64,000 bases of DNA from Acidimicrobiia bacterium. GTDB lineage: Bacteria; Actinomycetota; Acidimicrobiia; Spongiisociales; ZC4RG35. Below the pieces are notes generated by a model. That model worked only from the letters and a program-made list of their open reading frames with translations. It had not been told where the DNA came from and searched no databases. Shown here in pieces: positions 3,445 through 63,784 of the stretch. The translations under genes were made by a program, and so were the position numbers. Every line of letters starts with the position of its first letter. The stretch's first letter is position 1. The stretch is from assembly GCA_965203555.1 (NCBI GenBank), contig CBDBCY010000004.1:136961-200960 (forward strand), read 5' to 3'.

Positions 3445-4437
3445 ATGCTGGAGGATCGCCGCGCCGAGATATTGCGTTCCCTCGTGGAGTGCCACATACG
3501 GACCGGAGCCCCGGTGAGCTCCCAGATGGTCCTTGAGCACAGCGATCTGGAAGTCTCCCCCGCCACCGTCCGAAAAGAGTTGGCCCGGTTGGAAGAGGAC
3601 GGGTATGCAGACCAACCTCACACCTCGGCCGGCCGGATTCCCACGGCTGCGGCCTACCGCTTTTACGTGGACAACCATGCGGCCTTCCAGTTGCGCCGGG
3701 CGGTTCGCTCCCGCATCTCGTCTTTTTTCGCCGAGGTGGAGTTGGAATTGGACCGGTTGCTTCACTCCACTACCCGCCTCCTGTCCGACATCACCCGGTT
3801 GCCGGCGGTGGTGGTGGGTCCCCACCTGGCTGCGGAGCGCATTCGCAGCATTCACCTGGTGTCCCTGCAACTGCGTATGGCCCTGCTGGTCGTGGTCACG
3901 GAATCGGCGCGGGTACTGCAGGAGATCTGCCGCCTTCCGGCGCCTTTGACCGGAACGGAGATTTCGGAAATGGAGACGCTGCTTCGCAGTCACGCCCTGG
4001 GATCACCGCTCGGTTTGCCGGCCCCGCCCGCCGTTGCCGCGCCCGGGGTCGGGGGTCCGTCCTTTCAAAGTTGCTTCCAGGAGGTTTGGGACACCCTGGA
4101 GAGAACTGCGCGGCGAGCGTCCGATGTCTACGTGATGGGAACCGGACGATCGGCCCATCTGTGGGATGATCTGGATGCGGTCGCCCAGGTGTTGGGGGTG
4201 CTGGAGAGGGAGGCGGCAGTGCTCAACCTGTTGGCCGCCGATCCGGGCATCAACATCCGCATCGGGGAGGAGATTCCCGATCTGGAAATGGATCTGGCAG
4301 TGATCTCCACCTCGTTCATGGCCGGAAACTCCGCCGGACGGATTGGAGTCCTGGGGCCGATGCGCATGGACTACGGCCGTGCCATCTCGGTGTTGCAGAG
4401 AGTAAGCGCCGGGCTGGCCGATCGCATCGCCGTCTGA
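3445..4437 (+). CDS. hrcA: Heat-inducible transcription repressor HrcA
   Basis: 330-aa ORF, N-terminal winged-helix region (RRAEILRSLVECHIRTGAPVSS), classical position directly upstream of dnaJ. Confidence 0.9.
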   Translation: MLEDRRAEILRSLVECHIRTGAPVSSQMVLEHSDLEVSPATVRKELARLEEDGYADQPHTSAGRIPTAAAYRFYVDNHAAFQLRRAVRSRISSFFAEVELELDRLLHSTTRLLSDITRLPAVVVGPHLAAERIRSIHLVSLQLRMALLVVVTESARVLQEICRLPAPLTGTEISEMETLLRSHALGSPLGLPAPPAVAAPGVGGPSFQSCFQEVWDTLERTARRASDVYVMGTGRSAHLWDDLDAVAQVLGVLEREAAVLNLLAADPGINIRIGEEIPDLEMDLAVISTSFMAGNSAGRIGVLGPMRMDYGRAISVLQRVSAGLADRIAV

Positions 4438-4450
4438 ACAACCGGTACCG

Positions 4451-5549
4451 ATGGCCAAGGACTATTACCAGATTCTGGGAGTGGATCGCGAAGCCGACTC
4501 CAACCAGATCAAGAGGGCCTTCAGAAAACTCGCCCGCCAGACCCATCCCGACGCCAATCCCGGAGATCCTCAGGCGGAAGCCCGATTCAGGGAAGTGGCG
4601 GAAGCATACGAGGTGCTGTCCGACCCGGATCGCCGCCGGTCCTATGACCAGGGGGAGCAGATCGACATCTCGGGTATGTTCGGTGATCTCGACGACCTGC
4701 TTCGCTCGGTATTCGGAGGGTCGGGTTTCTTTGGGGGTCAAGGCGCCTCTCAACGTTCCCGCGGGCAGGACATCCTGGTGAGAGTCGGACTGAGTTTGGA
4801 AGAGGCGGCGTTCGGCGTTGAAAAGAGAGTGGAATTCGAAGCCCAGGCGGCCTGTTCCACTTGTGGTGGGGACGGGGGCGGCCGCCGGGTCTGAGATAAC
4901 TTCGTGCCGGGGGTGTGGGGGATCAGGGATGCTGCGCTCCACGCGTTCCAGCTTCTTCGGGTCGATGGTGACTACCTCCACCTGTCTCCGATGCGGGGGG
5001 AGAGGTCGGGAAGTCACCCAGATCTGTGGAAAGTGCCAAGGCGCGGGTGTCCATCCCGAGCGTCAGGCTCTGAAGGTCGAAATACCGGCCGGGGTTTCGG
5101 AGGGAACTCGTCTCCGCCTGAGAGGCAGGGGGGCGGCCGCTCCCCTGGGAGGCATGCCGGGGGATCTGTATGTGGAGGTGCTGGTTCGTTCCGACAGCCG
5201 GTTTGAGAGAGAGGGGGACCATCTCTACCATCGGGTCACGGTCGGGATCGCAGAGGCGGCTCTGGGAGCGGAAGTGAAGATACCGCTGCTCGAGGGCGGC
5301 TTCCACACTCTTCGCGTCCCGCCCGGTACCCAGCCGGGATGGGTCAGTCGGCTGCCGGGACATGGAACGCCTCTCATGGGTGGAAGACGGAGGGGGGACA
5401 TGTTGGTGGAGGTGGAGGTTGAGATTCCCAGGACGGTTTCCCGTGAAGAGGAGGACCTGCTGAGAGAACTGGCCGACCTGCGAGGGGAGTCTCCGCTGCC
5501 TCGATCTTTTCGAAGGGCAAGACGCCGGAGATCCGGCAAAAGACGGTAG
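4451..5549 (+). pseudogene. dnaJ: Chaperone DnaJ, reading frame broken by a 1-nt shift (ORFs 4451..4894 and 4818..5549)
   Basis: First ORF carries J domain (HPD in RQTHPDANPGD), G/F region and start of Zn finger (CSTCGGDG); second ORF in another frame continues AAAGSEITSCRGCGGSG...CLRCGGRG...CGKCQGAG and the C-terminal domains. The switch falls in the run gacgggggcggcc at about 4871..4883. Confidence 0.85.
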
Positions 5550-7013: not shown

Positions 7014-9766
7014 CTACAGGAGATAGACGACCTCCCAGGACGGGAGAAAAGTCGCTGATCCGCGGCCTGCTGCTGGTGTCCACGGTGTTGCTGGCCTGGG
7101 CCACCCTGACCATCGGCGCCGCCAGCGGAGAAGTCGATCTGAGAGTAGGAGAGTTGGCCACCCGCAATTACGTCGCTCAGCGGAGCAGCGAGGTCACCGA
7201 CCAGGAGGCCACCGAGACTCTTCGTGAAGAGGAGGCTGCCCGAGTGGAGAGTGTCACCACCCGGGACGAGAGCATAGAACAACAGGTCAACGACGACCTG
7301 TCGCAGTTGTTCGAGGCGATCAGAAGCGGAGTGCTGGCGCCCGAACCGGAGTGGGTGGGAACCCTGTCGCTTCCTCCCACCAGTACGACCACTACAACCA
7401 CCACCGCTGCGGCCCAGCCCACGACCACCACGTCGCCGCCCACCACCGAGACGGTTCCACCCCTGCAAGGGGAAGAAACTCCCGAAGGCGGCACCGATGG
7501 TGAACAAACGCCTCCTGCCGAAAGTCAGGAACAGGAATCGGATGTAATCACTACCACCACCGAGGCGGCTCAGGCTGCTGAGACTCCCGGGACGAATGCA
7601 GTGACCACTGCGGAACAACCGGCCAGGATCAACCTCAGTGGGAGAGTTTTCCTCGATTTCGACTCGGACGCAGCCATCACCGAGTCGGGCGACTACCCGG
7701 ACTTGGGAGTGGAGTTGGTGACGGTCCGGGTCGTCTCTCTCGCCGGTGAGGGATATGACACCCAGACCGATGCCAACGGGCACTTTAGCATTGAGGTGCC
7801 GGAAGGGGTATGGGAGGTGGTGGTGGACAGCCAGGATTCTGATCTCCCTGCGGGTTTCACCATTTACCTTCCCGGGCGAAGCCAAACAGTGGTGTGTTTG
7901 GGACAGGGATCGGAGTGTGCCACGCAACCGGTTCCCTTCGTTCCGCTTCTCCGTTCCGCCCAGGTGCAAAACCAGGAGTTGATCCGTTCCTACCCGCAGT
8001 TGAACACTGGCACGGTGGCCACCATGGTGGAGGTTGCCCGCAACGATGTGATCCGGCAGGTATCGGACATTGCGCCCGGCTTGGTGGAGATCGAGAGGGC
8101 GGCCCTTACCTTGATGGTCGAATCTTTTGCCAACGAGATCAAGAGTGAGGACCTGCTCTCGGCCCAGAGCAGTATCCTGTCGGATCCGCCGGTGGTGTTC
8201 ATTGACAATGTGCGCAACCCGGCGGCTGGCGAAGCGGCCGCCGACATCGCCGCGTCCTTCCTGCGCCCGAATTCCCTGCTCGACACCCAGGCCACGGAGG
8301 AGTTGCGACAAGCGGCTCGAGAAGCCTTGGAAGAGGTTACGGTCTCCTATCGTTCGGGGCAGCCCATAATCGCCGAGGGCGAGCCTCTCACCCGACTGGT
8401 CATCGATGTCATATCGGCGACCGGAGCCGCCACCGGAAGACCCGTGCAGGAGGCCGGTGTGCTGGTGGTCCTGGGGGCGGTGGTGGCGGTGTTGTCTCTC
8501 TTCCTCTACAGGTTCCGCCTCGATCTTTGGGAACAGATCCCGCTGCTCACCCTGTTCGGGCTTCTCACCGTGCTGGCGGCCGGCGCGGTGCGGGGCGCCA
8601 CCTTCATAGGTGAGGTATTCGGATACGAAGTGGGCGTATATCTGCTCCCAGCGGTGGCTTTCGGGTACTTGACGGCGGTTCTCTTGGACAACCGGGTTGG
8701 GCTCCTGATGGCTATTGTCCTGGCGGTGGTGACGGCGGTCGGCACCCGCGACCCCGGCGCGACCACCTACGCGCTGCTGGCCACCCTGGCGCCGGTGGGA
8801 TTCGTCTCGGCGGCCTCGAGTCGCCGGGCCTTCCGCAATTCGGTGGCGGTCTCCGCGGCGGCCTTGGCGGTTATCGCAGCGGCCACTGCGTGGATATTTC
8901 ACACCAGCATCGCCCAGTCTCCGGTGGGGGTGATGCTGCAGGCGGGGGTGCTGGCGTTCGCCTCCACCCTGATAGCCGCTCTCGTGGCCCTGGCGTCCAT
9001 TGCCTTTTTCGAAGGCATCTTCGACGTGACCACCACTCTCCGTTTGCTCGACTTGACCGATCGCAACCACGAGGCCCTGCAATTGCTGCAAGAGAAGGCT
9101 TTCGGTACCTTCAATCATTCCCTGATGGTGGGGACGCTGGCCAGCGCGGCGGCAAAGGCGATCGGGGCCAACAATCTCTTGGCTCGCGCGGCCGCCTATT
9201 ACCACGATCTGGGTAAGACGGAGAACCCCGGATTCTTTATAGAGAACCAGTTCGGCGCCGTCAATCCGCATGACGAGATGAGACCCGAGGAGTCCGCCGA
9301 GGTGATCCGCCGGCATGTGTCCGACGGCATAAGCCTGGCGACCCGCTATCAAATCCCCTCATCGGTGAGGGAGGGGATCCTTACTCATCACGGCACCGGG
9401 ATAATACGCTATTTCTACGACAAGGCCCTGGGCTTGTACGGGGAGGAAAACGTCGATGTGGATGACTATCGACACATTGGGGCGAAGCCCCGATCCAAGG
9501 AAATGGCCATTGTGATGCTGGCCGACGGGGTGGAGGGAGCATGCCGGGCCGCTTTCCAGGTCAATTATGGGGAAGGCGCTCCTCCAGAGCCCACCCTGCA
9601 AGCCATTGCTGCGGTGATAGACGGGATCATCCGTGAAAAGATGTCCGATTACCAGTTGAGCGAAGCCTCCCTCACCTTCAGCGAACTTCAGGCGATTCGC
9701 AATGCCTTCGCGGAAGCGATGGCGGGTCACTACCATCAGCGCATTCGATACCCCAACTTTCCCTGA
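7010..9766 (+). CDS. 7TM-receptor HD/HDIG-domain membrane phosphohydrolase (PgpH-like) with long N-terminal extracytoplasmic extension
   Basis: 918-aa ORF; N-terminal TM, Thr/Pro-rich linker, multi-TM block (about 8450..9000), C-terminal HD domain (AAYYHDLGK ... ILTHHGTG). Confidence 0.85.
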   Translation: MTTGDRRPPRTGEKSLIRGLLLVSTVLLAWATLTIGAASGEVDLRVGELATRNYVAQRSSEVTDQEATETLREEEAARVESVTTRDESIEQQVNDDLSQLFEAIRSGVLAPEPEWVGTLSLPPTSTTTTTTTAAAQPTTTTSPPTTETVPPLQGEETPEGGTDGEQTPPAESQEQESDVITTTTEAAQAAETPGTNAVTTAEQPARINLSGRVFLDFDSDAAITESGDYPDLGVELVTVRVVSLAGEGYDTQTDANGHFSIEVPEGVWEVVVDSQDSDLPAGFTIYLPGRSQTVVCLGQGSECATQPVPFVPLLRSAQVQNQELIRSYPQLNTGTVATMVEVARNDVIRQVSDIAPGLVEIERAALTLMVESFANEIKSEDLLSAQSSILSDPPVVFIDNVRNPAAGEAAADIAASFLRPNSLLDTQATEELRQAAREALEEVTVSYRSGQPIIAEGEPLTRLVIDVISATGAATGRPVQEAGVLVVLGAVVAVLSLFLYRFRLDLWEQIPLLTLFGLLTVLAAGAVRGATFIGEVFGYEVGVYLLPAVAFGYLTAVLLDNRVGLLMAIVLAVVTAVGTRDPGATTYALLATLAPVGFVSAASSRRAFRNSVAVSAAALAVIAAATAWIFHTSIAQSPVGVMLQAGVLAFASTLIAALVALASIAFFEGIFDVTTTLRLLDLTDRNHEALQLLQEKAFGTFNHSLMVGTLASAAAKAIGANNLLARAAAYYHDLGKTENPGFFIENQFGAVNPHDEMRPEESAEVIRRHVSDGISLATRYQIPSSVREGILTHHGTGIIRYFYDKALGLYGEENVDVDDYRHIGAKPRSKEMAIVMLADGVEGACRAAFQVNYGEGAPPEPTLQAIAAVIDGIIREKMSDYQLSEASLTFSELQAIRNAFAEAMAGHYHQRIRYPNFP

Positions 9767-12388: not shown

Positions 12389-12654
12389 ACTGCTCGTTCG
12401 GGCAGATACGAACCCCCGCTGGCGGCGAGTGTTCGTGCCGCGGAGGGTTCTGTGCCTCTGTTATCTCGGGGTGAAAGCAGGGAAGTATGTCGAGATTTGG
12501 GGAGGGGCTACCTGTGGTTTAGTGCAAGGCGTGGGCCGATGACCCCAATGGTGGGGGTCCTCCACAATTCGGGTGCGTGAGATCGGAGGCCAGGAGCGAG
12601 TATGTGCAGGGAGAGCAAGGCATCCGGACACCGATGGGTTCCCCCTCTTTCCGG

Positions 12655-12888
12655 CTATCGCTTATCGAGATACTCCAAGACCTGTCGGAAACCCCGGTCG
12701 AGTTTCTCGTCCGTGGCCTGACGATTCACGTCTATTTTGACGTTGAGCAGGTGAATGTCGTGTTTCACCTCGGCGAAATCGTGTTTCACTTCGGCGATAT
12801 CCTGTTTCACCTCCGCGATGTCGCGTTTCACCTCGGAGATGTCGTTCCCGATGCGTCTCTGCAGGCTGTTGAGGGCATCGGCGGTCAT
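12655..12888 (-). CDS. Small coiled-coil protein, paralog 1 (77 aa), unknown function
   Basis: ORF MTADALNSLQRRIGNDISEVKRDIAEVKQDIAEVKHDFAEVKHDIHLLNVK...; heptad repeats DIxEVKx; AAGGA 10 nt upstream of the ATG. Strand choice is not certain (see rejected). Confidence 0.5.
   Translation of the reverse strand: MTADALNSLQRRIGNDISEVKRDIAEVKQDIAEVKHDFAEVKHDIHLLNVKIDVNRQATDEKLDRGFRQVLEYLDKR
12760..12843. repeat. 4 x 21-bp in-frame tandem repeat (consensus gtgtttcacctcggcgatatc)
   Basis: Units at 12760, 12781, 12802 and 12823; each encodes one DIAEVKx heptad on the minus strand. Confidence 0.8.
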
Positions 12889-13130
12889 CGAAGCGACGTC
12901 CTTGGCGTCATGCTTCCCGAGTATATCCGGGATCGGCTGTCAATGCCACAGACGCGTCCGCTGCTTGCCTGTGATCTCATCCGGTCCGTCCACCGCGTTC
13001 CAGGATCATCTTCTCTTTGTTCAGCGTCCTTGCTCTGGTAGCGGCCCTCTGTCGGGAGATCGGGAGAGTCGTTTCAATGTAGCAGGGATAGCATGGCAGT
13101 CGGACACCGATGGGTTCCCCCTCTTTCCGG

Positions 13131-13367
13131 CTATCGCTTATCGAGATACTCCAAGACCTGTTGGAAACCCCGGTCGAGTTTCTCGTCCGTGGCCTGACGA
13201 TTCACGTCTATTTTGACGTTGACCAGGTGAATGTCGTGTTTCACTTCGGCGATGTCCTGTTTCACCTCCGCGATGTCGCGTTTCACCTCGGAGATGTCGT
13301 TCCCGATGCGTCTCTCCAGGCTGTTGAGGGCATCGGCAGTCATCGAAGCGATGTCCTTGGCGTCCAT
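13131..13367 (-). CDS. Small coiled-coil protein, paralog 2 (78 aa; 70 aa if started at the conserved internal ATG at 13343)
   Basis: ORF MDAKDIASMTADALNSLERRIGNDISEVKRDIAEVKQDIAEVKHDIHLVNVK...; same family as 12655..12888 but one heptad shorter. Confidence 0.5.
   Translation of the reverse strand: MDAKDIASMTADALNSLERRIGNDISEVKRDIAEVKQDIAEVKHDIHLVNVKIDVNRQATDEKLDRGFQQVLEYLDKR
13236..13298. repeat. 3 x 21-bp in-frame tandem repeat (same family as 12760..12843)
   Basis: Units at 13236, 13257 and 13278. Confidence 0.8.
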
Positions 13368-13595
13368 GCTTCCCGAGTATATCCGGGATCAGCTATCAAG
13401 GCCACAGACGCGTCCGCTGCTTGCCTGTGATCTCATCCGGTCCGTCCACCGCGTTCCAGGATCATCCTCTCTTTGTTCAGCGTCCTTCTTTTGGCAACGG
13501 CTCTCAATAACACAGAAACCAATGGCGCAGACCAAGGCCGTTCGTTTACTGAAGTAGAGCATTTTGCTGTTGTCTGATATCCTTATTGGTGCATT

Positions 13596-20153: not shown

Positions 20154-20992
20154 TCCGTTCGGGAGACCTTCATCACCTCCTGGAACAGGCCTTTTACGAA
20201 GATCTGGGAACCGGGGGCGATCTCACCTCCGTTGCTCTTATCGATGCGGGATGGGAGGCGCTGGGGTGGGTGGTGTTCAAATCCGAGGGGAGGGTCGCCG
20301 GGCTGGGGGCGGCGGAGGCGGCTTTCCGGTTTGTGGATGGCCGGGTGGTGTTCGAAGCGAAGACTCACGACGGGGCGGACCTGTCGCCGGGATCGGTGGC
20401 GGCCGAGGTGAGGGGCCCGGCCAGGGGCATCCTGGCAACTGAAAGAGTGGCCCTCAACTTGCTGGGTCATCTGTCGGGTGTCGCCACCGCCACTAGAGAA
20501 CTGGTGGCATCCGTATCCGGGACCGGGGTTGAGATCACCGACACCCGCAAGACCACCCCCGGTTTGCGAATGTTGGAGAAGGAGGCGGTCCGGATCGGGG
20601 GAGGGGTGAACCATCGGATGGGTTTGTGGGATGCGGTGCTGATCAAGGACAACCATCTCTGCATGGTGGAGAGCGCTGCCGGGGCAGTGCGAACCGCCCG
20701 CCGCAAGACCGGGGGAAAGGTGAAGGTAATCGTCGAGGTAGCGGACCCCGACAATCTCGAGGAGGTGGTGGCGGCCCGCCCCGATGTGATCCTGTTGGAC
20801 AATATGACCACCGTTCAGATGACGGAGGCGGTTCGCCTGGTTGGAGGCCGGGTGATCCTGGAGGCCAGCGGGGGCGTATCGCTCTCCAATGTCAGGAGCG
20901 TGGCGGAGACGGGGGTGGACATCATTTCCACCGGTTGGATCACCCATTCAGCGCCGGTGGTGGACGTTAGCCTGCGGTTGGCGCGTGTTTGA
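20150..20992 (+). CDS. nadC: Nicotinate-nucleotide pyrophosphorylase (carboxylating) NadC
   Basis: NadC homology begins upstream of the first canonical start (GTG 20270): LIRSGDLHHLLEQAFYEDLGTGGDLTS is in frame from 20150. The frame is open only from 20102 and has no ATG/GTG/TTG before 20270; CTG 20150 overlaps the corrected nadA stop (CTGA). Confidence 0.8.
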   Translation: MIRSGDLHHLLEQAFYEDLGTGGDLTSVALIDAGWEALGWVVFKSEGRVAGLGAAEAAFRFVDGRVVFEAKTHDGADLSPGSVAAEVRGPARGILATERVALNLLGHLSGVATATRELVASVSGTGVEITDTRKTTPGLRMLEKEAVRIGGGVNHRMGLWDAVLIKDNHLCMVESAAGAVRTARRKTGGKVKVIVEVADPDNLEEVVAARPDVILLDNMTTVQMTEAVRLVGGRVILEASGGVSLSNVRSVAETGVDIISTGWITHSAPVVDVSLRLARV

Positions 20993-23155: not shown

Positions 23156-23199
23156 GAGGCATTGCTGTGGCTGCTGACCGAGGGCATCGTCTCCTGCGC

Positions 23200-25284
23200 A
23201 TGCGTCAGGTGCCCCTGAGTCGCACCCGCAATATCGGAATCATGGCCCACATCGATGCAGGAAAGACCACTCTGACCGAGCGGATTCTTTACTACACCGG
23301 TCGCAACTACAAAATCGGGGAGGTCCACGAGGGCGCCGCCACCATGGATTGGATGGCACAGGAGCAGGAGCGGGGAATCACCATCACCTCTGCCGCCACC
23401 ACCTGTATCTGGCACGATCACAGCATCAACATCATCGACACTCCGGGTCATGTCGATTTCACCGTCGAGGTGGAACGTAGTCTTCGAGTCCTGGATGGGG
23501 CGGTGGCGGTATTCGACGGGGTGGCGGGAGTGGAACCACAGTCGGAGACGGTGTGGCGGCAGGCCGACCGCTACGAAGTTCCCCGCATCTGCTTCATCAA
23601 CAAACTCGACCGACTGGGGGCGGACTTCTTCGCCGATGTGGAATCGATCCGCACCCGACTCAACGCAACACCTCTGGTGGTCCAACTGCCCGTGGGTGAG
23701 GAGAGTGATTTCCGAGGTGTTCTGGACCTGGTGGAAATGCAGATTCACGAGTGGCGGGGGGACGACGGCAGGCACTGGGACACCGGCGACATCCCCGAAT
23801 CGATGCAGGACCTGGCTTATGAATACCGGGCGCGGATGTTGGAGCAGGTAGCCGAGGTTGACGAGAAACTCCTGATCAAGTTCCTCGAAGATCTGTACAT
23901 AACCCCCGACGAGATCCGAACCGCTATCCGTACGGGGGTGCTTCAGCACATGTTCGTGCCGGTGCTTTGTGGTGCGGCCTTCAAGAACAAGGGAGTGCAG
24001 CCGCTGCTTGACGCCATTGTCCACTATCTGCCCAGCCCCTTGGACCTTCCTCCGGTGAAGGGTTTCGCCCCCAAGAATCCGGAACAGGTTCTGGAACGGA
24101 AGGCCAATGACGACGAGCCATTTTCGGCTCTCGCCTTCAAGATCATGAGCGATCCCCACGTCGGCAAGCTCACCTATTTCCGGGTCTATTCGGGCTCGGT
24201 CTCCAAGGGCGGCGCGGTGTTCAATACCACCAACGGCAAGAAGGAGCGCCTGGGACGGCTGCTTCGCATGCATGCCAACCATCGTGAGGATGTCAACATT
24301 GTTTACACCGGTGACATCGTGGCGGCGGTGGGATTGCGACACACCACCACCGGCGACACCCTTTCCGGTGTCGGTCACCCCATCAGCCTGGAATCGATGG
24401 CCTTTCCCGCGCCGGTTATCTGGGTAGCCATCGAGCCTCGCACCAGGGTTGACCAGGACAAGTTGTCCGAGTCCCTGCAAAAGCTGTCGGAGGAGGACCC
24501 GACCTTTCTGGTGAGAAGTGACGAAGAGACCGGGCAAACCATCATCTCGGGAATGGGCGAGCTCCACCTGGAGGTATTGGTGGACCGGCTGATCCGGGAA
24601 TTCAAGGTCGCGGCCAACATCGGTAAGCCGCAGGTCGCCTATCGAGAATCAATCCTGTCGGCCGTAGAGAAAGTGGAAGGCCGTTACGTCCGCCAGAGTG
24701 GCGGCCGGGGTCAGTACGGTCATGTCGTCATCGACATCGAACCCACCGGTCCCGGAGGAGGTTACGAATTCGTCAACAAGATCAGGGGCGGTCGCGTCCC
24801 CCGTGAATACATTCCGGCGGTGGCCGCCGGCATCGGAGAGGCTCTCGATGGGGGTATCCTGGCGGGCTACCCGGTGGTGGATGTGCGGGTCACCCTGGTT
24901 GACGGTTCACATCATGAAGTAGATTCTTCCGAACTGGCCTTTCGGATAGCCGGTTCCATGGCTGTTCGCGCCGCCACCAACAAGGCGGGGCTGAAACTGC
25001 TGGAGCCGGTGATGGAAGTCGAGGTGGTCACTCCCGACGAGTACATGGGAGACGTGATCGCCGACATTTCCGCTCGCCGGGGCCGTATTGGAGAAACCGA
25101 TCAGCGGGGATCGGCCCGGCTAATCACCGCCGCCGTACCGCTGGCCGCAATGTTCGGCTTTGCTACTGATATCCGGTCCAGGACTCAGGGGCGAGCAACG
25201 TATTCGATGCAATTCAAGGCTTACCAAGATGTTCCTGACTCTATTTGTCAGGACATCCTTCATTTGAGAACTGGTAAGTATTAG
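23200..25284 (+). CDS. fusA: Elongation factor G
   Basis: [28 protein letters not shown] motifs. ATG 23200 gives the usual N-terminal length; in-frame GTG 23167 is an alternative. Confidence 0.95.
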
Positions 25285-26497
25285 AAATGGGGGTGTTTGG
25301 TTGTGGGTAAGGTGAGGTTTGAGCGGGTGAAGCCGCATTTGAATGTGGGTACTATGGGTCATATTGATCATGGGAAGACTACGTTGACTGCTGCGATTAC
25401 TAGGGTGTTGTCTGAGCGGGTTGGTGGGGTGAATGTGGTGACTGGGTTTGATGATATTGATCGTGCTCCTGAGGAGCGTGAGCGGGGTATTACGATTCAG
25501 ATTGCGCATGTTGAGTATGAGACTGTTTTGCGTCATTATGCGCATGTGGATATGCCGGGGCATGCGGATTATATTAAGAATATGATTACGGGGGCGGCTC
25601 AGGTGGATGGGGCGGTGTTGGTGGTGTCGGCGGTTGATGGTCCGATGCCGCAGACTCGTGAGCATGTGTTGTTGGCGCGGCAGGTGGGTGTGCCGCGGAT
25701 TGTGGTGTTTTTGAATAAGTGTGATTTGGTGGATGATGGTGAGTTGTTGGATTTGGTGGAGTTGGAGGTTCGGGATTTGTTGACGGAGTATGAGTTTCCG
25801 GGTGATGATGTTCCGGTGGTGAGGGGTTCGGCGTTGTTGGCGTTGGAGGGTGATGTGGTGGCTGGTGATGGGGTTATGGAGTTGATGGATGCGGTTGATG
25901 GGTATGTTGATGTGCCGGTTCGGGATGTGGATCGTCCGTTTTTGATGCCGATTGAGGATGTGTTTTCGATTACTGGTCGGGGTACGGTGGTGACTGGTCG
26001 GGTTGAGCAGGGTGTGTTGCGGGTTGGTGAGGCGGTTGAGGTGGTTGGTTTGCGTGATACGCGTGGGTCGGTGGCTACTGGTGTGGAGATGTTTAGGAAG
26101 TTGTTGGATGAGGGTCGGGCTGGTGATAATGTGGGGGTGTTGTTGCGGGGGGTGGGGAAGTCGGAGGTGGAGCGTGGTCAGGTGTTGGCTGCTCCTGGGT
26201 CGATTTTGCCGCATGTGGGTTTTGAGGCGCAGGTGTATGTGTTGACGAAGGAGGAGGGGGGGAGGCATAATCCGTTTTTTTCGGGTTATCGTCCGCAGTT
26301 TTATTTTCGGACTACGGATGTGACGGGTTCGGTGTTGTTGCCTGTTGGGGTGCAGATGGTGATGCCGGGTGATAATGTGGAGTTGTCGGTGGAGTTGATT
26401 GCTCCGATTGCGATGTCGGTGGGGTTGGATTTCGCGATTCGTGAGGGTGGTCGGACTGTGGGGGCGGGTCGGGTCACCAAGATCACCAAATAACCCC
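25283..26497. repeat. 1,215-bp block apparently identical to 61421..62635 (tuf plus 20 nt of leader and 4 nt after the stop)
   Basis: Identical translations in sense, sense-shifted and antisense frames for both copies, plus spot checks of the nucleotide lines at offset 36138. Confidence 0.9.
25303..26493 (+). CDS. tuf: Elongation factor Tu, copy 1 (tufA-like position after fusA)
   Basis: [24 protein letters not shown] motifs. GTG 25303 gives [12 protein letters not shown], matching canonical EF-Tu length; ORF track opens at TTG 25297. Confidence 0.95.
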
Positions 26498-26583
26498 AAA
26501 CCCAAGAAGGCAAAGGATTGTGGACAACAACCGGCAAGGGCAAGTAGAGAATAAGCCGAGCAAGCGAGGACAGTAGAAGAGAC

Positions 26584-26895
26584 ATGAACGGTTCCCATAA
26601 GATCCGCATAAAGCTCAAGGCTTATGACCATCAGAGTGTGGATGAGTCAGCGCGCAAGATCGCTGCTACGGTTACTCGTACCCAGGCCAAAATAAGAGGT
26701 CCTGTTCCGTTGCCTACCGAGATCCACAGATACTGCGTTATACGCGGACCCCATGTCGATAAAGACTCCCGGGAACACTTCGAGATGCGCATTCATAAGC
26801 GGTTGATCGATATCTTGGATCCAACCGCTAAAACGGTTGATTCATTGATGCGCCTTGATCTTCCTTCCGGAGTGGAAGTAGAGATAAAGCTGTGA
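26584..26895 (+). CDS. rpsJ: 30S ribosomal protein S10
   Basis: 103-aa ORF, S10 homology, head of the S10 operon. Confidence 0.95.
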
Positions 26896-45930: not shown

Positions 45931-45989
45931 GAAAGGAGGAATTTCCCACCCCACAACTCGGCGTGCAGCGGAGTTATCTCACAACAAAC

Positions 45990-46150
45990 AAGCGCCAGGC
46001 CTCTTGAACCGCCGGTCGGCGGATTCCGGAGGTGACGAGGAGGAAGGCGATCGAATCTTTCGGCGGATGCCTTTCCGGCCACCACAGTCGTGACGATCGG
46101 AGCAAATCCCGCCGGTAACGGCGGGGACAAAAGACGGTCGAAGTGGAGCG
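45990..46150 (+). ncRNA. glmS: glmS ribozyme / GlcN6P riboswitch
   Basis: Directly upstream of glmS: AGCGCCAGG (45991) ... GACGAGGAGGAAGGCGATCGAATCTTTCGGCGGATGCCTTTCCGG. This closely matches the remembered Bacillus core GACGAGGAUGGAGGUUAUCGAAUUUUCGGCGGAUGCCUCCCGG. A downstream hairpin CCGCCGGTAACGGCGGGG and GACAAAAGA follow. Ends are approximate. Confidence 0.75.
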
Positions 46151-46196
46151 TTCCGCAATGCGCGCGCAGAGGGGGTTTGTGGAAATTGGCGCGATC

Positions 46197-48032
46197 ATGT
46201 GCGGAATAGTTGGTTATGTTGGCTCCCGCCCTGCTCGAGATTTGTTGCTGGGTGGTTTGGCCCGGTTGGAGTACCGGGGCTACGACTCGGCGGGAATGGC
46301 TATCGGTCAGAACGGCGCATTGACAAGTGTCCGACAGGTTGGAAAGATCTCCGATCTGGCCGCGGTGGTCCAGGAAGGTTCGGAGTCTTTCCCCGGGGGG
46401 TATGGAGTCGGGCATACCCGATGGGCGACTCACGGGGCGCCCACCACTCCCAATGCTCACCCTCACTTCGATTGCTCGGGGGAGGTGGCGATCGTCCACA
46501 ACGGGATTATTGAGAATTGGACGGAGTTGAAGGCTTGGTTGGAAGGCCGGGGGCACGGATTTGCCTCCGACACCGACACGGAGGTGGCCGCCCATCTCAT
46601 CGAGGAACTGTCTTCGCTCCCCCTGTCAGAGGCAGTGGCGCAGGTCCTGCGACGCTGTGAGGGCGCCCTGGCCCTGGCGGTGATTCGCCGCTCCGATCCA
46701 GGGCTGGTTGTGGGAGGTCGGAAGGGAAGCCCGCTGGTGATCGGCCGGGGATCGGGGGAGAATTTCCTGGCTTCCGACATCCCTGCGTTCATGGCCCATA
46801 CCCGTCGCATGATGGTGGTTCCCGAAGATCGGGTGGTGGAGATCCGCTCGGACTCGGTGCGCATCACCGACCTACGCGGACAGGAGCAGGAACCAGAGGA
46901 ACGGGAGGTGGAATGGGACGTGGAGGCCGCCGAGAAGGGCGGCTATCCCACTTTCATGCTCAAGGAGATATACGAGCAGCCCAAAGCCGTGGCGGAGACC
47001 CTGTTGGGACGCATCAGTTCCACCGGTCTGCCCATGCTGGAGGAAACGGGAGTGACCGCCGAGATTGCCAAGGACGTGGACAAGGTGTTCGTGGTGGCCT
47101 GCGGTACCTCCTATCACGCCGGGATGATGGCCAAATACGCATTGGAGCGATGGGCGAAGCTTCCGGTGGAGGTAGATCTGTCCTCGGAGTTCCGGTATCG
47201 AGATCCGGTTCTCAACTCCCGCTCGCTGGTGATCGGCATCAGCCAGTCGGGAGAGACTGCGGACACTTTGGGCGCGATCCGATATGCGCTCGGACAGGGC
47301 GCCCGGGTGGCGGCGGTGACCAACGTGGTCGGATCGTCGCTGGCCCGAGAGGCGCACATGGTGCTGCAAACCAGGGCGGGCCCCGAAATCGGAGTGGCGG
47401 CTTCCAAGACCTTCATCACCCAGATGGCCCTGCTTCAACTATTGGGTCTGCATATGGCCATCGAGCGAGGCGTGATGAGTCCCGCAGAAGCGGCAGGGCC
47501 GGTGAATGCGCTGCGCAGCCTGCCTGATCGGCTCGATGAAGTGTTGGGCCTTTCCGATCAGATGCTGGAGTTGGCGCAGGAGTGGCGGGACGTGCGAGAT
47601 TTCTTCTTCCTGGGCAGGTCTGTCGACTATCCGGCGGCTCTGGAAGGCGCCTTGAAGCTGAAGGAATTGTCCTATGTGCGAGCCGAGGGTTATGCGGCCG
47701 GTGAGATGAAGCACGGTCCCATCGCCCTGATCGAGCCGGGAGTGGTGGTGATCGGAGTGGCCACCGACCGCCGGCTGCGTCCCAAGATGTTCTCCAATCT
47801 CTCGGAGATGAAGGCGCGGGGCGGTACGGTGGTGACCCTGGTCGGAGAGGAGGACCGGGCCGAGGCGGCAATCACCTCCGATCTGGTGATAACCCTTCCC
47901 GAAGACGCTGATCTGATCGGAGCGGTGCTGGCAGTGGTTCCGCTGCAACTCTTCTCCTACCACCTTGCCACCCTCAAGGGACTGGACGTCGACCAACCCC
48001 GCAACCTTGCCAAGACGGTGACCGTGGAGTAG
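46197..48032 (+). CDS. glmS: Glutamine--fructose-6-phosphate aminotransferase
   Basis: ATG 46197 gives the obligatory MCGIVGY N-terminus (Cys2 nucleophile); two SIS domains; ends ...TVTVE. ORF track opens at 46143. Confidence 0.95.
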   Translation: MCGIVGYVGSRPARDLLLGGLARLEYRGYDSAGMAIGQNGALTSVRQVGKISDLAAVVQEGSESFPGGYGVGHTRWATHGAPTTPNAHPHFDCSGEVAIVHNGIIENWTELKAWLEGRGHGFASDTDTEVAAHLIEELSSLPLSEAVAQVLRRCEGALALAVIRRSDPGLVVGGRKGSPLVIGRGSGENFLASDIPAFMAHTRRMMVVPEDRVVEIRSDSVRITDLRGQEQEPEEREVEWDVEAAEKGGYPTFMLKEIYEQPKAVAETLLGRISSTGLPMLEETGVTAEIAKDVDKVFVVACGTSYHAGMMAKYALERWAKLPVEVDLSSEFRYRDPVLNSRSLVIGISQSGETADTLGAIRYALGQGARVAAVTNVVGSSLAREAHMVLQTRAGPEIGVAASKTFITQMALLQLLGLHMAIERGVMSPAEAAGPVNALRSLPDRLDEVLGLSDQMLELAQEWRDVRDFFFLGRSVDYPAALEGALKLKELSYVRAEGYAAGEMKHGPIALIEPGVVVIGVATDRRLRPKMFSNLSEMKARGGTVVTLVGEEDRAEAAITSDLVITLPEDADLIGAVLAVVPLQLFSYHLATLKGLDVDQPRNLAKTVTVE

Positions 48033-48123
48033 CCTAAGCTATTGAAACTCAGACGATTTGGATTTTGTTTTCAGAAATACTCTATGATGAGGCATATCCG
48101 ACCAATCGTGAAGGAGCACGCAG

Positions 48124-48354
48124 ATGAGTGGATTGGTTGCCGTTCCCTATCGACCCAAGTCGTCATTCCTGGGGGGAGTCGCACTAATCGTGGATTTTGG
48201 ACACGCCCTGATCTGCTACGAATCCTTTGAGTCAGAAGCAGAAGCGGACATGTATGCGCTTCAGAGGGACTTTGACAGGGTCTGCCAGGACATCCGCGAG
48301 GTTGGTGGTGTCGCTCTTGCTGAGGTAAACGCCGTGTTGAACACACCAAAGTAG
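48124..48354 (+). CDS. Hypothetical protein, 76 aa
   Basis: GAAGGAG 7 nt upstream of the ATG; lower-GC islet; stop overlaps the next start (TAGTG); no family recognised. Confidence 0.55.
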   Translation: MSGLVAVPYRPKSSFLGGVALIVDFGHALICYESFESEAEADMYALQRDFDRVCQDIREVGGVALAEVNAVLNTPK

Positions 48355-48827
48355 TGAGTGATGACGGAACCCCTCTCCAGAGCCATCCAGAGGGTGAGAA
48401 CGAACTTCGGGAAACTGAGCTAACGGCTGTCCCGGGCGACCAGTCCGAGGGCGGATCAGTGCCTGGGAGCACGACTGCTGTTCGGTTTGAATGGAGTGCC
48501 CCACTACCACCCCCACCCGTGATGCGTGAGTATGGGGAAATACTCCATGACGCACCGAATAGGATTTTTGAGATGGCCGAGCGGCAGGTTGGAATGGCTG
48601 AGCGTCAGATTGACGGCCGGTTGGCGTTGGAGAAGGCACAGTCTCGCAATGTGTCATTGGGGCTGTGGGGTGGTATTTTGATATCTCTGGTAGGTTTAGT
48701 CGGAGGGATCTATCTTGTTAACAGCGGTTATCAGTGGCCAGGATTGATAGTTATCGGTGTGGATTTTGGGTGGTCGTTTAGCTCGTTTTTCTTTACGTAC
48801 CGGACTAACTCCAGACAGAGCAAGTAG
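48354..48827 (+). CDS. DUF2335-like membrane protein, 157 aa
   Basis: Pattern SAPLPPPPVMREYGEILHDAPNRIFEMAERQ... followed by two TM helices resembles the DUF2335 family as I recall it. Confidence 0.6.
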   Translation: MSDDGTPLQSHPEGENELRETELTAVPGDQSEGGSVPGSTTAVRFEWSAPLPPPPVMREYGEILHDAPNRIFEMAERQVGMAERQIDGRLALEKAQSRNVSLGLWGGILISLVGLVGGIYLVNSGYQWPGLIVIGVDFGWSFSSFFFTYRTNSRQSK

Positions 48828-48913
48828 CGCGTCCCGCTTGGCTTTTTCCCTTACCCGCCAAAATGCTCCAAGCATTCGGCACAAAGCAGTGGCGGACAGG
48901 TAGCATCGTTGGA

Positions 48914-61103: not shown

Positions 61104-61185
61104 GCCGGGATACCCAAGCGGCCAAAGGGAGCAGACTGTAAATCTGCCGGCGATGCCTTCGGAGGTTCAAATCCTTCTCCCGGCA
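61104..61185 (+). tRNA. tRNA-Tyr (anticodon GTA), long variable arm
   Basis: Acceptor GCCGGGA/TCCCGGC, anticodon stem-loop GCAGA-CTGTAAA-TCTGC, T arm GGAGG-TTCAAAT-CCTTC; CCA not encoded. Confidence 0.9.
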
Positions 61186-61209
61186 CCGGCTTTCCCGCAA
61201 AGACCAAGC

Positions 61210-61283
61210 GCCCCCTTAGCTCAGACGGCCAGAGCGCCTCCATGGTAAGGAGGAGGTCTCCGGTTCGAATCCGGAAGGGGGCT
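61210..61283 (+). tRNA. tRNA-Thr (anticodon GGT)
   Basis: Acceptor GCCCCCT/AGGGGGC, anticodon stem-loop CCTCC-ATGGTAA-GGAGG, T arm TCCGG-TTCGAAT-CCGGA. Confidence 0.9.
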
Positions 61284-61314
61284 CCCCCGTGCGGCCCGCG
61301 CCGACTACGGGTAA

Positions 61315-61388
61315 AGGCGGCGTAGCTCAGTTGGTAAGAGCGCTCGACTCATAATCGAGAGGTCGGCAGTTCAAGTCTGCCCGCCGCT
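61315..61388 (+). tRNA. tRNA-Met (anticodon CAT), elongator type
   Basis: Acceptor GGCGGCG/CGCCGCT, anticodon stem-loop CTCGA-CTCATAA-TCGAG (no GGG/CCC initiator signature), T arm GGCAG-TTCAAGT-CTGCC. Confidence 0.88.
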
Positions 61389-61420
61389 ACATGGAACCAA
61401 AGACAGCTATCGATAAATAC

Positions 61421-62635
61421 AGAAATGGGGGTGTTTGGTTGTGGGTAAGGTGAGGTTTGAGCGGGTGAAGCCGCATTTGAATGTGGGTACTATGGGTCAT
61501 ATTGATCATGGGAAGACTACGTTGACTGCTGCGATTACTAGGGTGTTGTCTGAGCGGGTTGGTGGGGTGAATGTGGTGACTGGGTTTGATGATATTGATC
61601 GTGCTCCTGAGGAGCGTGAGCGGGGTATTACGATTCAGATTGCGCATGTTGAGTATGAGACTGTTTTGCGTCATTATGCGCATGTGGATATGCCGGGGCA
61701 TGCGGATTATATTAAGAATATGATTACGGGGGCGGCTCAGGTGGATGGGGCGGTGTTGGTGGTGTCGGCGGTTGATGGTCCGATGCCGCAGACTCGTGAG
61801 CATGTGTTGTTGGCGCGGCAGGTGGGTGTGCCGCGGATTGTGGTGTTTTTGAATAAGTGTGATTTGGTGGATGATGGTGAGTTGTTGGATTTGGTGGAGT
61901 TGGAGGTTCGGGATTTGTTGACGGAGTATGAGTTTCCGGGTGATGATGTTCCGGTGGTGAGGGGTTCGGCGTTGTTGGCGTTGGAGGGTGATGTGGTGGC
62001 TGGTGATGGGGTTATGGAGTTGATGGATGCGGTTGATGGGTATGTTGATGTGCCGGTTCGGGATGTGGATCGTCCGTTTTTGATGCCGATTGAGGATGTG
62101 TTTTCGATTACTGGTCGGGGTACGGTGGTGACTGGTCGGGTTGAGCAGGGTGTGTTGCGGGTTGGTGAGGCGGTTGAGGTGGTTGGTTTGCGTGATACGC
62201 GTGGGTCGGTGGCTACTGGTGTGGAGATGTTTAGGAAGTTGTTGGATGAGGGTCGGGCTGGTGATAATGTGGGGGTGTTGTTGCGGGGGGTGGGGAAGTC
62301 GGAGGTGGAGCGTGGTCAGGTGTTGGCTGCTCCTGGGTCGATTTTGCCGCATGTGGGTTTTGAGGCGCAGGTGTATGTGTTGACGAAGGAGGAGGGGGGG
62401 AGGCATAATCCGTTTTTTTCGGGTTATCGTCCGCAGTTTTATTTTCGGACTACGGATGTGACGGGTTCGGTGTTGTTGCCTGTTGGGGTGCAGATGGTGA
62501 TGCCGGGTGATAATGTGGAGTTGTCGGTGGAGTTGATTGCTCCGATTGCGATGTCGGTGGGGTTGGATTTCGCGATTCGTGAGGGTGGTCGGACTGTGGG
62601 GGCGGGTCGGGTCACCAAGATCACCAAATAACCCC
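61421..62635. repeat. Second copy of the 1,215-bp tuf block (partner of 25283..26497)
   Basis: Same evidence as copy 1. After the identical part, similarity continues about 10 nt across a 2-nt C-run indel. Confidence 0.9.
61441..62631 (+). CDS. tuf: Elongation factor Tu, copy 2 (tufB-like position after a tRNA cluster)
   Basis: Translation identical to copy 1; located 52 nt after tRNA-Met on the same strand. Confidence 0.95.
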
Positions 62636-62696
62636 CCAAACCCAAAGACTGACGCCAATAGCGCAAGAAGCCAGGACGTAAGAAAGAAAGCAACCG

Positions 62697-62888
62697 ATGC
62701 CAAGTGACAAGAGACCCCCGGTGAAACTTGCCTGCACCGAGTGCAAGCGGCGCAACTACGTGACCACCCGCGGCAGGGCGAACCAGCACGACAAGGCGCA
62801 GCGCCGCAACCTCGTGCGAGGCCGGTTGGTGCTTCGCAAGTACTGTCGGTGGTGCCGCATTCACACTTCCCACCGGGAAACGCGATAG
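62697..62888 (+). CDS. rpmG: 50S ribosomal protein L33
   Basis: 63-aa [15 protein letters not shown] ... [14 protein letters not shown] zinc-ribbon pattern. Confidence 0.88.
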
Positions 62889-62929
62889 GCCAGGCCAAGG
62901 CGTCTGCTTCCAAGGGGGTGGCCGGCCAG

Positions 62930-63784
62930 ATGACTCTCGCCGATCTGGAGGGCATGGTTTTCGGGCCCGAGCCCCTGCGGGTTTCCAGGGACCGCGTCGC
63001 CGCCTACGTGGAGGTAACCGGCGACCAACCCGATCGATGGGGCGATGTCGCTCCGCCCGGCATGGCCGGCGCCGCGTTGTTTGCGGTAGCTCCCACGTTG
63101 CTTTCTCATCCGGCGGTTATGGCCGAGGGCGGTGCGGCGATTCACGGGGAGCAGGTCTTCATATGGAAGGCCCCACTTCAGGCGGAGGCAACCTGGTCGG
63201 TGGTAGGTGAGGTCAAGCGGGTGCGACATCGTCGGGGCGTCTGGTTTGTGGACTTTTCCGCAGCCGTCGCCGACTCCCATGGCGGGACAATGGTGGAGGG
63301 CAGGTCTTCTTTCCTGATCGCCGGAGGTAGCCCGCCGGCTCGGAGCGGGACGGTGGATACCGAACCGCCTCCCCATCACCGTGCCGACAACCGACCGGCG
63401 TCCGGCGCCGACCTTCCCGAGGTGGGCTGTGAGACTCCCACGCTCTCCAAATCGGCGAGTCGTGCGGATCTGATTCGCTACGCCGCGGTCACCAGGGATT
63501 GGAATCCGATCCACTGGGATCATCAGTCGGCGGTGGGAGCGGGGCTTCCGGGCGTGGTGGTGCACGGATTGGCCTGCGCAGCCTGGATGTGCCAGGGCGT
63601 CACCCGGTTGCTGGACGGAGAGGCGCCCATTGGTAGAGCCAAGTTCCGGTTTCGGCGGCCGCTACGCCCCGCGGTGTCCGCGCAGGTGGAGGGCAGGCGG
63701 ACCGGTGAAGACCGGTTCGCAATGCGTTTGGTCTCGGAAGGACACGTTCTCATCACAGCCACGATGGAGACGGCGCTCCATTAG
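62930..63784 (+). CDS. Double hot-dog (3R)-hydroxyacyl-ACP/CoA dehydratase, fused HadA-like + HadB-like (MaoC) domains
   Basis: C-terminal half carries the hydratase-2 motif (AAVTRDWNPIHWD); N-terminal half is a non-catalytic hot-dog. ATG 62930 (or GTG 62918); ORF track opens at 62741 inside rpmG. Confidence 0.8.
   Translation: MTLADLEGMVFGPEPLRVSRDRVAAYVEVTGDQPDRWGDVAPPGMAGAALFAVAPTLLSHPAVMAEGGAAIHGEQVFIWKAPLQAEATWSVVGEVKRVRHRRGVWFVDFSAAVADSHGGTMVEGRSSFLIAGGSPPARSGTVDTEPPPHHRADNRPASGADLPEVGCETPTLSKSASRADLIRYAAVTRDWNPIHWDHQSAVGAGLPGVVVHGLACAAWMCQGVTRLLDGEAPIGRAKFRFRRPLRPAVSAQVEGRRTGEDRFAMRLVSEGHVLITATMETALH

Follow-up and report, generated by a model that had tools for sequence, protein, structure and literature searches.

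The 64,000-nucleotide (nt) stretch of DNA studied here (the window; contig CBDBCY010000004.1 of assembly GCA_965203555.1, positions 136,961 to 200,960) comes from an Acidimicrobiia bacterium and carries two copies of tuf, the gene encoding elongation factor EF-Tu. The two copies are identical over 1215 nt, and throughout most of their length the coding strand lacks A and C (the amino bases) at third codon positions, leaving only the keto bases G and T; a short tail at the 3' end has the opposite composition. The neighboring genes are normal. The same keto-only tuf recurs in a Thermus-like lineage, and we propose, with a probability of roughly 0.4, that the loss of A and C is a by-product of gene conversion between the tuf copies filtered by NucS/EndoMS mismatch repair.

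Two identical tuf genes with a keto-only body

Exact pairwise comparison of positions 25283..26497 and 61421..62635 (offset 36138) gave 1215 nt with 0 mismatches, so the nucleotide identity that a sequence-only reading of the window had claimed holds without scattered differences. Both edges of the block are sharp, since identity ends exactly at 25283/61421 and at 26497/62635 and the flanks are unrelated; in both copies the block spans from 20 nt upstream of the GTG start through 4 nt past the TAA stop, the same limits that this reading had given. The approximately ten further similar bases that it had noticed across a CC indel correspond to CCCC(CC)AAACCCAA, common to both loci. Its assignment of the copies to the canonical tufA and tufB loci agreed with the ARAGORN, Rfam and Pfam results: fusA precedes the first copy, within the gene order rpsL-rpsG-fusA-tufA-rpsJ, and the second copy lies between a tRNA-Tyr/Thr/Met cluster and rpmG. 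The reading frame and the GTPase motifs of tuf are intact.

The salient feature of this block, already pointed out from the sequence as an aberrant composition fixed at both loci, is its third codon position. Each copy has 229 G, 161 T, 5 C and 2 A at third positions; all seven A/C-ending codons fall in codons 377-397, leaving codons 1-376 without a third-position A or C, and all 34 leucine codons are TTG. The run of G or T at every third base reaches 381 in both copies, and a search of all six frames of the 64-kb window gave no second run of at least 25. The leader TGGGGGTGTTTGGTT is wholly G/T from -15 to -1, and the Shine-Dalgarno sequence reads GGGGG in place of GGAGG. As T makes up 41% of the third positions, the G+C content at third positions (GC3) of tuf is 0.59 vs about 0.75 in the neighboring genes; its GC skew is 0.55 and its AT skew is negative.

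The remaining genes of the window show a third-position G+T of 0.36-0.65 and a T/(T+C) of 0.12-0.52. In particular, groEL, fusA and the ribosomal protein genes prefer C-ending codons, with a T/(T+C) of 0.12-0.35 vs 0.97 in tuf, and the value of groEL (0.14) implies that the expression-linked preference of this genome is for C-ending codons. The composition was normal in fusA, rpsL, rpsG, rpsJ, rplC, rpmG, rplK, rplL and groEL, in the window as well as in all the relatives examined, and the spacer that follows tRNA-Met is A/C-rich, unlike the tuf block. Other G/T-rich patches (20198-20416 and 48557-48816, and 73-346 and 7358-7540 on the minus strand) were discarded: they are coding sequence of ordinary G-rich or low-GC type and show no pattern by codon position. 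Long minus-strand open reading frames (ORFs) cross both tuf copies (Table 1); they stay open because their first codon positions lie opposite the third positions of tuf, which are G/T-only, and this excludes stops beginning with T. An antisense gene on tuf was consequently rejected, the ORF being a forced outcome of the G/T third positions, and readings of the block in terms of diversity-generating retroelements (DGR) or retro-conversion were rejected as well.

A mirror-image tail at the 3' end

The sequence-only reading held that the G/T signature fades about 60 nt before the end of the identity block. The boundaries of composition and of identity do differ, but the distance had to be refined: the feature at 64 nt before the block end is a lone TTC (codon 377), and the true switch to A/C-ending codons takes place at codon 391 (position 62611), 24 nt before the end. 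In the window clade only the final seven codons (counting the stop) and the shared 3' trailer remain of the tail. In many Acidimicrobiia the final 20-35 codons of tuf carry only A or C at third positions, and these long tails contain A-ending codons that the genomes do not use elsewhere (GAA, CGA, GTA, GGA, AGA, ATA and AAA); third-position A amounts to 5-9 per 30 codons in the tail vs 0-2 in a normal tuf and 0.5-2% in the body. The A/C-rich 3' stretch common to both loci measures only about 45 nt, and the sequence further 3' of tufA is purine-rich.

Concerted evolution and grading among relatives

The EF-Tu proteins closest to that of the window belong to Acidimicrobiia. The comparison with related genomes, which the sequence-only reading had proposed as a check, recovered two near-identical tuf copies in the same two contexts with conserved edges. 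One relative carries both loci on one 1.35-Mb contig (L002, 3' of fusA, and L001, 5' of rpmG); its copies are 6 nt apart, differ from the window by 77-82 nt, contain 2-4 third-position A/C each and are flanked by normal genes. In a more distant genome (L086/L087; EF-G 74% and MaoC 49% identical) the copies are 1 nt apart, with a third-position G+T of 0.86 and a residual-C pattern that is identical in both. The differences within genomes are thus 0, 6 and 1 nt (window, L001/L002 and L086/L087, respectively) vs 67-88 nt between genomes. These distances support recurrent gene conversion as the process keeping the two copies identical over the block, as had been suspected from the window itself. 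In the relatives the block begins 14 to 20 nt upstream of the start codon, and its 3' edge falls 4 nt or more beyond the stop, at about 27 nt in the case of L001/L002.

Two local differences between paralogues were observed in these genomes. Codons 301-302 of L002 are ATC AAG (Ile-Lys), and those of L001 and of both window copies are ATT TTG (Ile-Leu); the former is a 3-nt amino-rich patch surviving in one paralogue. Directly 3' of tufA in L087 (7322-7355) a heptamer is repeated four times in tandem, (ACGTGAG)n, and none is present at the tufB locus of that genome.

The signature is graded. Among 80 species-representative genomes the typical high-GC tuf has a third-position G+T of 0.38-0.46, and the Acidimicrobiia form a series with 0.64 and 0.73 in Microthrixaceae, 0.78 and 0.82 in Ilumatobacteraceae, a further 0.82, and 0.98-0.99 in the window clade, the class as a whole spanning 0.4 to 0.99. 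The fusA and rpsJ genes beside graded tuf genes were always normal, and the signature was present in 8 of the 8 examined Acidimicrobiia tRNA-rpmG loci that hold tuf. Two controls bear on the mechanism proposed below. The E. coli tufA/B genes, which undergo conversion in a MutSL background, have a third-position G+T of 0.50. Values of 0.41-0.46 were found in Streptomyces, Nocardia and Klenkia, which we take to be NucS carriers with only one tuf, at the fusA locus. In the intermediates the loss of C begins at 4-fold sites, mostly by change to G, and reaches two-fold NNC codons and ATC later; they also show a mild 5'-to-3' gradient, strongest at the 5' end, with an abrupt change in the last 30 codons or so.

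The signature was seen in Illumina, long-read and JGI assemblies, and on three independent long contigs the two tuf copies occupy the same two distinct settings. The short-read contigs L212, L213 and L215, which come from different samples, begin 38-63 nt 5' of rpmG, where the tuf repeat has its 3' edge; this suggests assembly breaks or collapse at the repeat.

The constraint acts on base class and has altered EF-Tu

At 4-fold sites the tuf of the window differs from those of two relatives by 0.5% transitions and 19-21% transversions, the latter being nearly all G<->T (38/39 and 44/44), vs 17-19% transitions and 28-34% transversions of all kinds in fusA in the same comparison. Both keto bases are well represented at the 4-fold sites of the extreme clade (G123:T74), and first-position A<->C swaps (CGG/AGG) are free in tuf. 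Synonymous turnover is therefore free but only within the keto class, which excludes a conserved RNA structure or sequence motif as its cause. These substitution patterns indicate that the constraint acts on base class and is ongoing.

The bias is not limited to silent sites. At conserved first and second codon positions, defined as those on which 11 or more of the 14 outgroups agree, the window shows 36 changes from amino to keto, 2 from keto to amino and 13 within class; the first set includes 15 A>G and 11 A>T, with 0 T>A in the opposite direction. The composition of EF-Tu has shifted accordingly (V from 40 to 65, G from 36 to 47, R from 21 to 30, K from 22 to 10, I from 26 to 16 and T from 33 to 23). 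A and C have been cleared from the coding strand of the block at all sites where EF-Tu permits it and at part of those where it does not; K>R, I>V, M>L and E>V are examples of the latter. The bias has changed about 40-50 residues of EF-Tu, which is typical of a drive.

Recurrence in a Thermus-like lineage

An unbiased metagenome scan with a 39-nt EF-Tu P-loop pattern having K (G or T) at every third position matched at least 120 contigs. Among the matches listed, a third-position G+T of at least 0.9 over the rest of the gene was found only in Acidimicrobiia-like sequences and in one Thermus-like lineage (Deinococcota), represented by L090, L197 and L159, with values of 0.94-0.99 and normal neighboring genes. 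The L090 copy (contig Ga0180432_10047078; third-position G+T 0.99) lies at a fusA-tuf-rpsJ locus and that on L197 (a sequence of 13220 nt; third-position G+T 0.96) at a tRNA-Thr/Tyr/Gly/Thr-tuf locus; they differ from each other at 15% of sites, and 88 of the 106 third-position differences are G<->T exchanges. The affiliation of this lineage rests on the similarity of its RpoB, S10 and EF-Tu to Thermus structures: its EF-Tu is 81% identical to that of Thermus (sequence taken from a PDB alignment), its S10 is closest to Thermus, and its RpoB aligns end to end with the Thermus beta subunit at 1699 bits, the next organism scoring 1255. The keto-only tuf has arisen independently in Acidimicrobiia and in the Thermus-like lineage.

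Gene conversion filtered by NucS as a proposed mechanism

The host bacteria are expected to rely on NucS/EndoMS, an enzyme that detects G-T, G-G and T-T mismatches and overlooks A-C, A-A and C-C. In our proposal, every heteroduplex formed during conversion would consist of the coding strand already present at a locus and the template-sense strand arriving from the second copy; an arriving A or C that faced a C or A of the resident strand would escape notice and become fixed, and an arriving G or T that faced a T or G there would be detected and rejected. A new coding-strand G or T in one copy would spread to the other, a new A or C would be erased, and G<->T and A<->C exchanges would stay free. 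Such an irreversible ratchet would require two converting copies and NucS-type repair. For the A/C tail, we suppose that the strand polarity of the heteroduplex is inverted close to the 3' end of the homology, in the way expected for the two flanks of a resected break; as a conjecture, a preferred initiation point near this edge would give the tail its opposite polarity.

The cumulative GC skew of the window (1-64000; G 21748 vs C 17627) rises monotonically, and nearly all genes are on the plus strand. The whole window thus lies on one replichore, judging from skew and gene orientation, with its genes co-oriented with replication. The rise of the skew across the whole window implies that the coding strand is the leading-strand sequence, and because of the co-orientation the tuf coding strand is the lagging-strand template.

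In M. smegmatis in vivo, incoming strands that form G-T or G-G opposite the lagging-strand template are rejected, and those forming C-A, A-C, C-C, A-A, G-A or A-G are retained (PMC11551744). Homeologous recombination is suppressed by NucS (PMC5290159, PMC8228993), and Haloferax requires it for gene conversion (PMC11276520). Among bacteria it has been reported only from Actinobacteria, including the Acidimicrobiia member Ilumatobacter coccineus, and from Deinococcus-Thermus (PMC5290159), a taxonomic range that matches the two lineages with the signature and that we count in favor of the proposal. The substitutions in tuf partition by the NucS mismatch classes, with amino>keto allowed, keto>amino blocked and changes within class free. 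The ratchet would account for the confinement of the signature to the duplicated block, for its saturated state, for changes that run against protein constraint, for the unrestricted G<->T and A<->C exchange and for the taxonomic distribution. We therefore tentatively favor a strand-specific biased conversion in which co-oriented converting copies and NucS repair would act together as a ratchet, removing A and C from one strand to saturation, overriding codon optimization and rewriting part of EF-Tu, independently in Acidimicrobiia and in a Deinococcota lineage; we regard this full scenario as possible, at somewhat less than even odds.

Several points weigh against the NucS proposal. The heteroduplex geometry on which it depends is assumed, and both the 5'-to-3' gradient and the mirrored tail need extra assumptions. 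The order of the purge, with 4-fold C>G before NNC>NNT, is equally expected from selection against C in the mRNA. All genomes readable at both loci (window, L001/L002 and L086/L087) have two copies and the signature, which makes the link with duplication one-sided, and two Actinomycetota with a tuf of normal composition at the rpmG locus (L075 and L006) are possible counter-examples. A tblastn search of 1.3 Mb of fetched DNA with a NucS query gave no match, a result that is uninformative on the genomes. Finally, the Deinococcus-Thermus species with NucS also keep MutS-MutL (PMC5290159).

Alternative explanations

The bipartite structure of tuf, with a C-poor, G-rich body followed by a G-poor, C-rich tail, could also be the result of selection on its transcript. 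A body free of C and A would evade Rho, RNase E or strong structure, the tail would be a Rho loading site that ends the transcript, and conversion would merely spread the sequence. This is the main rival of the NucS ratchet and a serious one, even if we consider it rather unlikely. Rho loading (rut) sites are C-rich and G-poor, and actinobacterial RNase E is reported to cut 5' of C. A search for promoters and terminators around both tuf copies gave nothing above chance, and the lack of an intrinsic terminator after either copy suits a Rho-dependent end; the purge begins with 4-fold C>G ahead of NNC>NNT, the mild 5'-to-3' gradient fits as well, and the predicted folding of the tuf mRNA is 27% weaker than that of the same protein encoded by genome-typical codons (-382 vs -523 +/- 15 kcal/mol). 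However, fusA, which is upstream and co-transcribed, and all other highly expressed genes are untouched. A has been purged as strongly as C, including by A>T, which is of no help against Rho, and T is as acceptable as G at the 4-fold sites of the extreme clade (G123:T74). A weak benefit per site is unlikely to force some 40-50 replacements in EF-Tu, the sequence 3' of tufA is not rut-like past the shared 20 nt, and Rho and RNase E are near-universal whereas the signature is found in two lineages only.

A G/T end state on the coding, leading strand is also the product expected from deamination of single-stranded DNA, and the GC skew of 0.55, the negative AT skew and the stronger effect at the 5' end of the intermediates would agree with a strand-specific hypermutation in which the exposed non-transcribed strand of this very highly transcribed gene, perhaps in G-rich R-loops, is deaminated, C>U and A>hypoxanthine giving C>T and A>G and an extreme keto skew. 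We find this improbable, because transversions are equally directional (A>T 11:0, with C>G as the chief route at 4-fold sites), the 4-fold sites were purged long before the two-fold NNC and ATC codons, which need the same C>T, the signature ends at the edges of the conversion block, sparing the co-transcribed fusA and the A/C-rich spacer after tRNA-Met, and the bias is reversed in the tail. Since codon bias is normally strongest in tuf, NNG and NNT codons might be thought optimal for EF-Tu through a special tRNA pool or modification; this is hardly credible when C-ending codons are the preferred ones in groEL, in fusA and in the genes for ribosomal proteins (T/(T+C) 0.12-0.35 vs 0.97 in tuf) and the bias extends to the untranslated leader and to first and second positions and is reversed in the last codons. 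An artefact of assembly or sequencing, namely a collapsed or duplicated repeat or systematic miscalls, would account for the perfect 1.2-kb identity, as expected of collapse followed by re-placement, and for the break of the short-read contigs L212, L213 and L215 at the block edge. It is very improbable in view of the different syntenic contexts of both copies on single long contigs of three other genomes, the 1-6 real differences between the copies of the relatives, the intact reading frame and EF-Tu motifs, and the occurrence of the signature in over 100 contigs that represent a variety of samples and technologies.

Annotation of the tuf loci and other features of the window

The features of the two loci are listed in Table 1. 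Pfam also identified a MaoC-like dehydratase, an M48 peptidase, GroEL, S12 and S7 in the window.

Table 1. Coordinates of the tuf copies, their compositional segments and the flanking genes in the window
Feature	Position	Strand	Basis and remarks
fusA (EF-G)	23167..25284	+	Pfam; third-position G+T 0.50 (normal); stop codon overlaps first 2 nt of tufA block
Spurious antisense ORF at tufA, 503 aa (twin of that at tufB)	25120-26631	-	
tufA copy of the 1215-nt block (20-nt leader, coding sequence, 4 nt post-stop)	25283..26497	+	exact identity with 61421-62635
tufA coding sequence, EF-Tu, 396 aa, GTG start, directly 3' of fusA	25303..26493	+	translation; Pfam GTP_EFTU, D2 and D3 domains
Amino-rich tail, tufA	26473..26512	+	80% A/C
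rpsJ (S10), 3' of tufA	26584..26895	+	Pfam; normal composition
tRNA-Tyr(GTA), tRNA-Thr(GGT), tRNA-Met(CAT) cluster, 5' of tufB	61104..61390	+	ARAGORN, Rfam
tRNA-Tyr	61104-61187	+	ARAGORN, Rfam
tRNA-Thr	61210-61285	+	ARAGORN, Rfam
tRNA-Met	61316-61390	+	ARAGORN, Rfam
Spurious antisense ORF at tufB, 522 aa	61387..62955	-	frame arithmetic 62955-61443 = 1512 = 3x504
tufB copy of the 1215-nt block	61421..62635	+	exact identity with 25283-26497
Keto-only body	61426..62610	+	codons 1-390 end in G/T apart from codon 377 (TTC); A+C only 26% across all positions
tufB coding sequence, EF-Tu, 396 aa, GTG start	61441..62631	+	translation; Pfam
Amino-rich tail, tufB: GTC ACC AAG ATC ACC AAA TAA CCCCCCAAACCCAAAGACT	62611..62650	+	82% A/C; anchored at 3' edge of shared block
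rpmG (L33), 3' of tufB	62697..62888	+	Pfam Ribosomal_L33

The longest ORF of the MaoC-like dehydratase (62741-63784, plus strand) begins inside rpmG, and its true start probably lies after 62888. In the L001 counterpart (4298-5335) the gene caller took an over-long MaoC start and dropped rpmG. A glmS ribozyme (Rfam RF00234, 86.7 bits) was found at 45980-46150 on the plus strand, directly 5' of a 629-aa ORF (46143-48032) that presumably is glmS.

A tandem duplication at 12606-13505, with 92-97% identity and a period of about 456-476 nt, contains a minus-strand ORF of 77-78 aa with a heptad-like repeat (DISEVKRDIAEVKQDIAEVKHD...), and one of its copies has a 21-nt deletion. As the only other repeat of the window it was considered as an internal control for conversion and set aside, being too short and too different. 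A low-GC island at 48100-48900 (GC 0.54 vs about 0.62) contains a small ORF (48354-48827) with a T/G-rich C-terminal part, probably membrane-spanning; it is unrelated to the tuf signature.

Relation to known systems and significance

The duplication and homogenization of tuf is an already-known phenomenon. Concerted evolution of tufA and tufB by gene conversion in Salmonella and E. coli was reportedly described by Lathe and Bork in 2001. It has since been documented in 221 species of 6 phyla, including Actinobacteria (PMC6053082), and the kinetics of tuf gene conversion have been studied (PMC5485169). The genes of the window resemble this system in having two EF-Tu genes at the fusA and tRNA loci, an identity confined to the gene with sharp edges, and paralogues closer than orthologues. 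They depart from it in that known tufA/tufB pairs use normal, translationally optimal codons, whereas here the converted block is without A and C on one strand and the protein has shifted.

The favored reading also shares with the GC-biased gene conversion of mammals and yeast, proposed for bacteria as well, a non-adaptive, repair-driven bias at the heteroduplex that fixes mildly deleterious changes. GC-biased conversion, however, favors G and C on both strands, whereas in tuf G and T are favored on one strand, C is eliminated, GC3 falls from about 0.75 to 0.59, and the bias flips near the 3' edge. The excess of G+T on the leading, coding strand recalls the asymmetries caused by replication and transcription, but ordinary skews amount to a few per cent and are genome- or operon-wide; the present one is saturated, is restricted to the converted block of 1.2 kb, includes transversions and comes with a mirror tail. 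The closest parallel in base classes is the spectrum of NucS/EndoMS, in which keto-keto mismatches are recognized and amino-amino mismatches are ignored, and which is found in the same taxa (Actinomycetota and Deinococcota). A 2026 preprint considered that repair asymmetries in conversion could reshape the composition of paralogues in M. tuberculosis (PMC13061034). The enrichment reported there is of T>C, unlike the keto drive in tuf, where the link with NucS is inferred.

Our literature search found no paper on EF-Tu codon usage in Acidimicrobiia, and none describing a strand-specific drive or a keto-only gene, or tying NucS to strand-biased conversion or to tuf. As far as this search and general knowledge reach, the saturated strand-specific loss of A and C, the mirror tail, the effect on the protein and the independent recurrence are undescribed.

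These features matter because EF-Tu is encoded by one of the most conserved and most expressed genes and is a textbook case of translational selection; here another force abolishes the codon usage and drives dozens of replacements, and the signature has been maintained over deep divergence. On the practical side, gene callers yield spurious antisense ORFs of 500 aa on keto-only tuf, short-read assemblies break at the block, and the compositional drive will distort trees built with tuf, a phylogenetic and barcoding marker. If repair-biased conversion is the true cause, the tuf genes of these bacteria would report the mismatch specificity of NucS and the strand geometry of bacterial conversion, and intragenomic drive would be able to shape essential bacterial genes.

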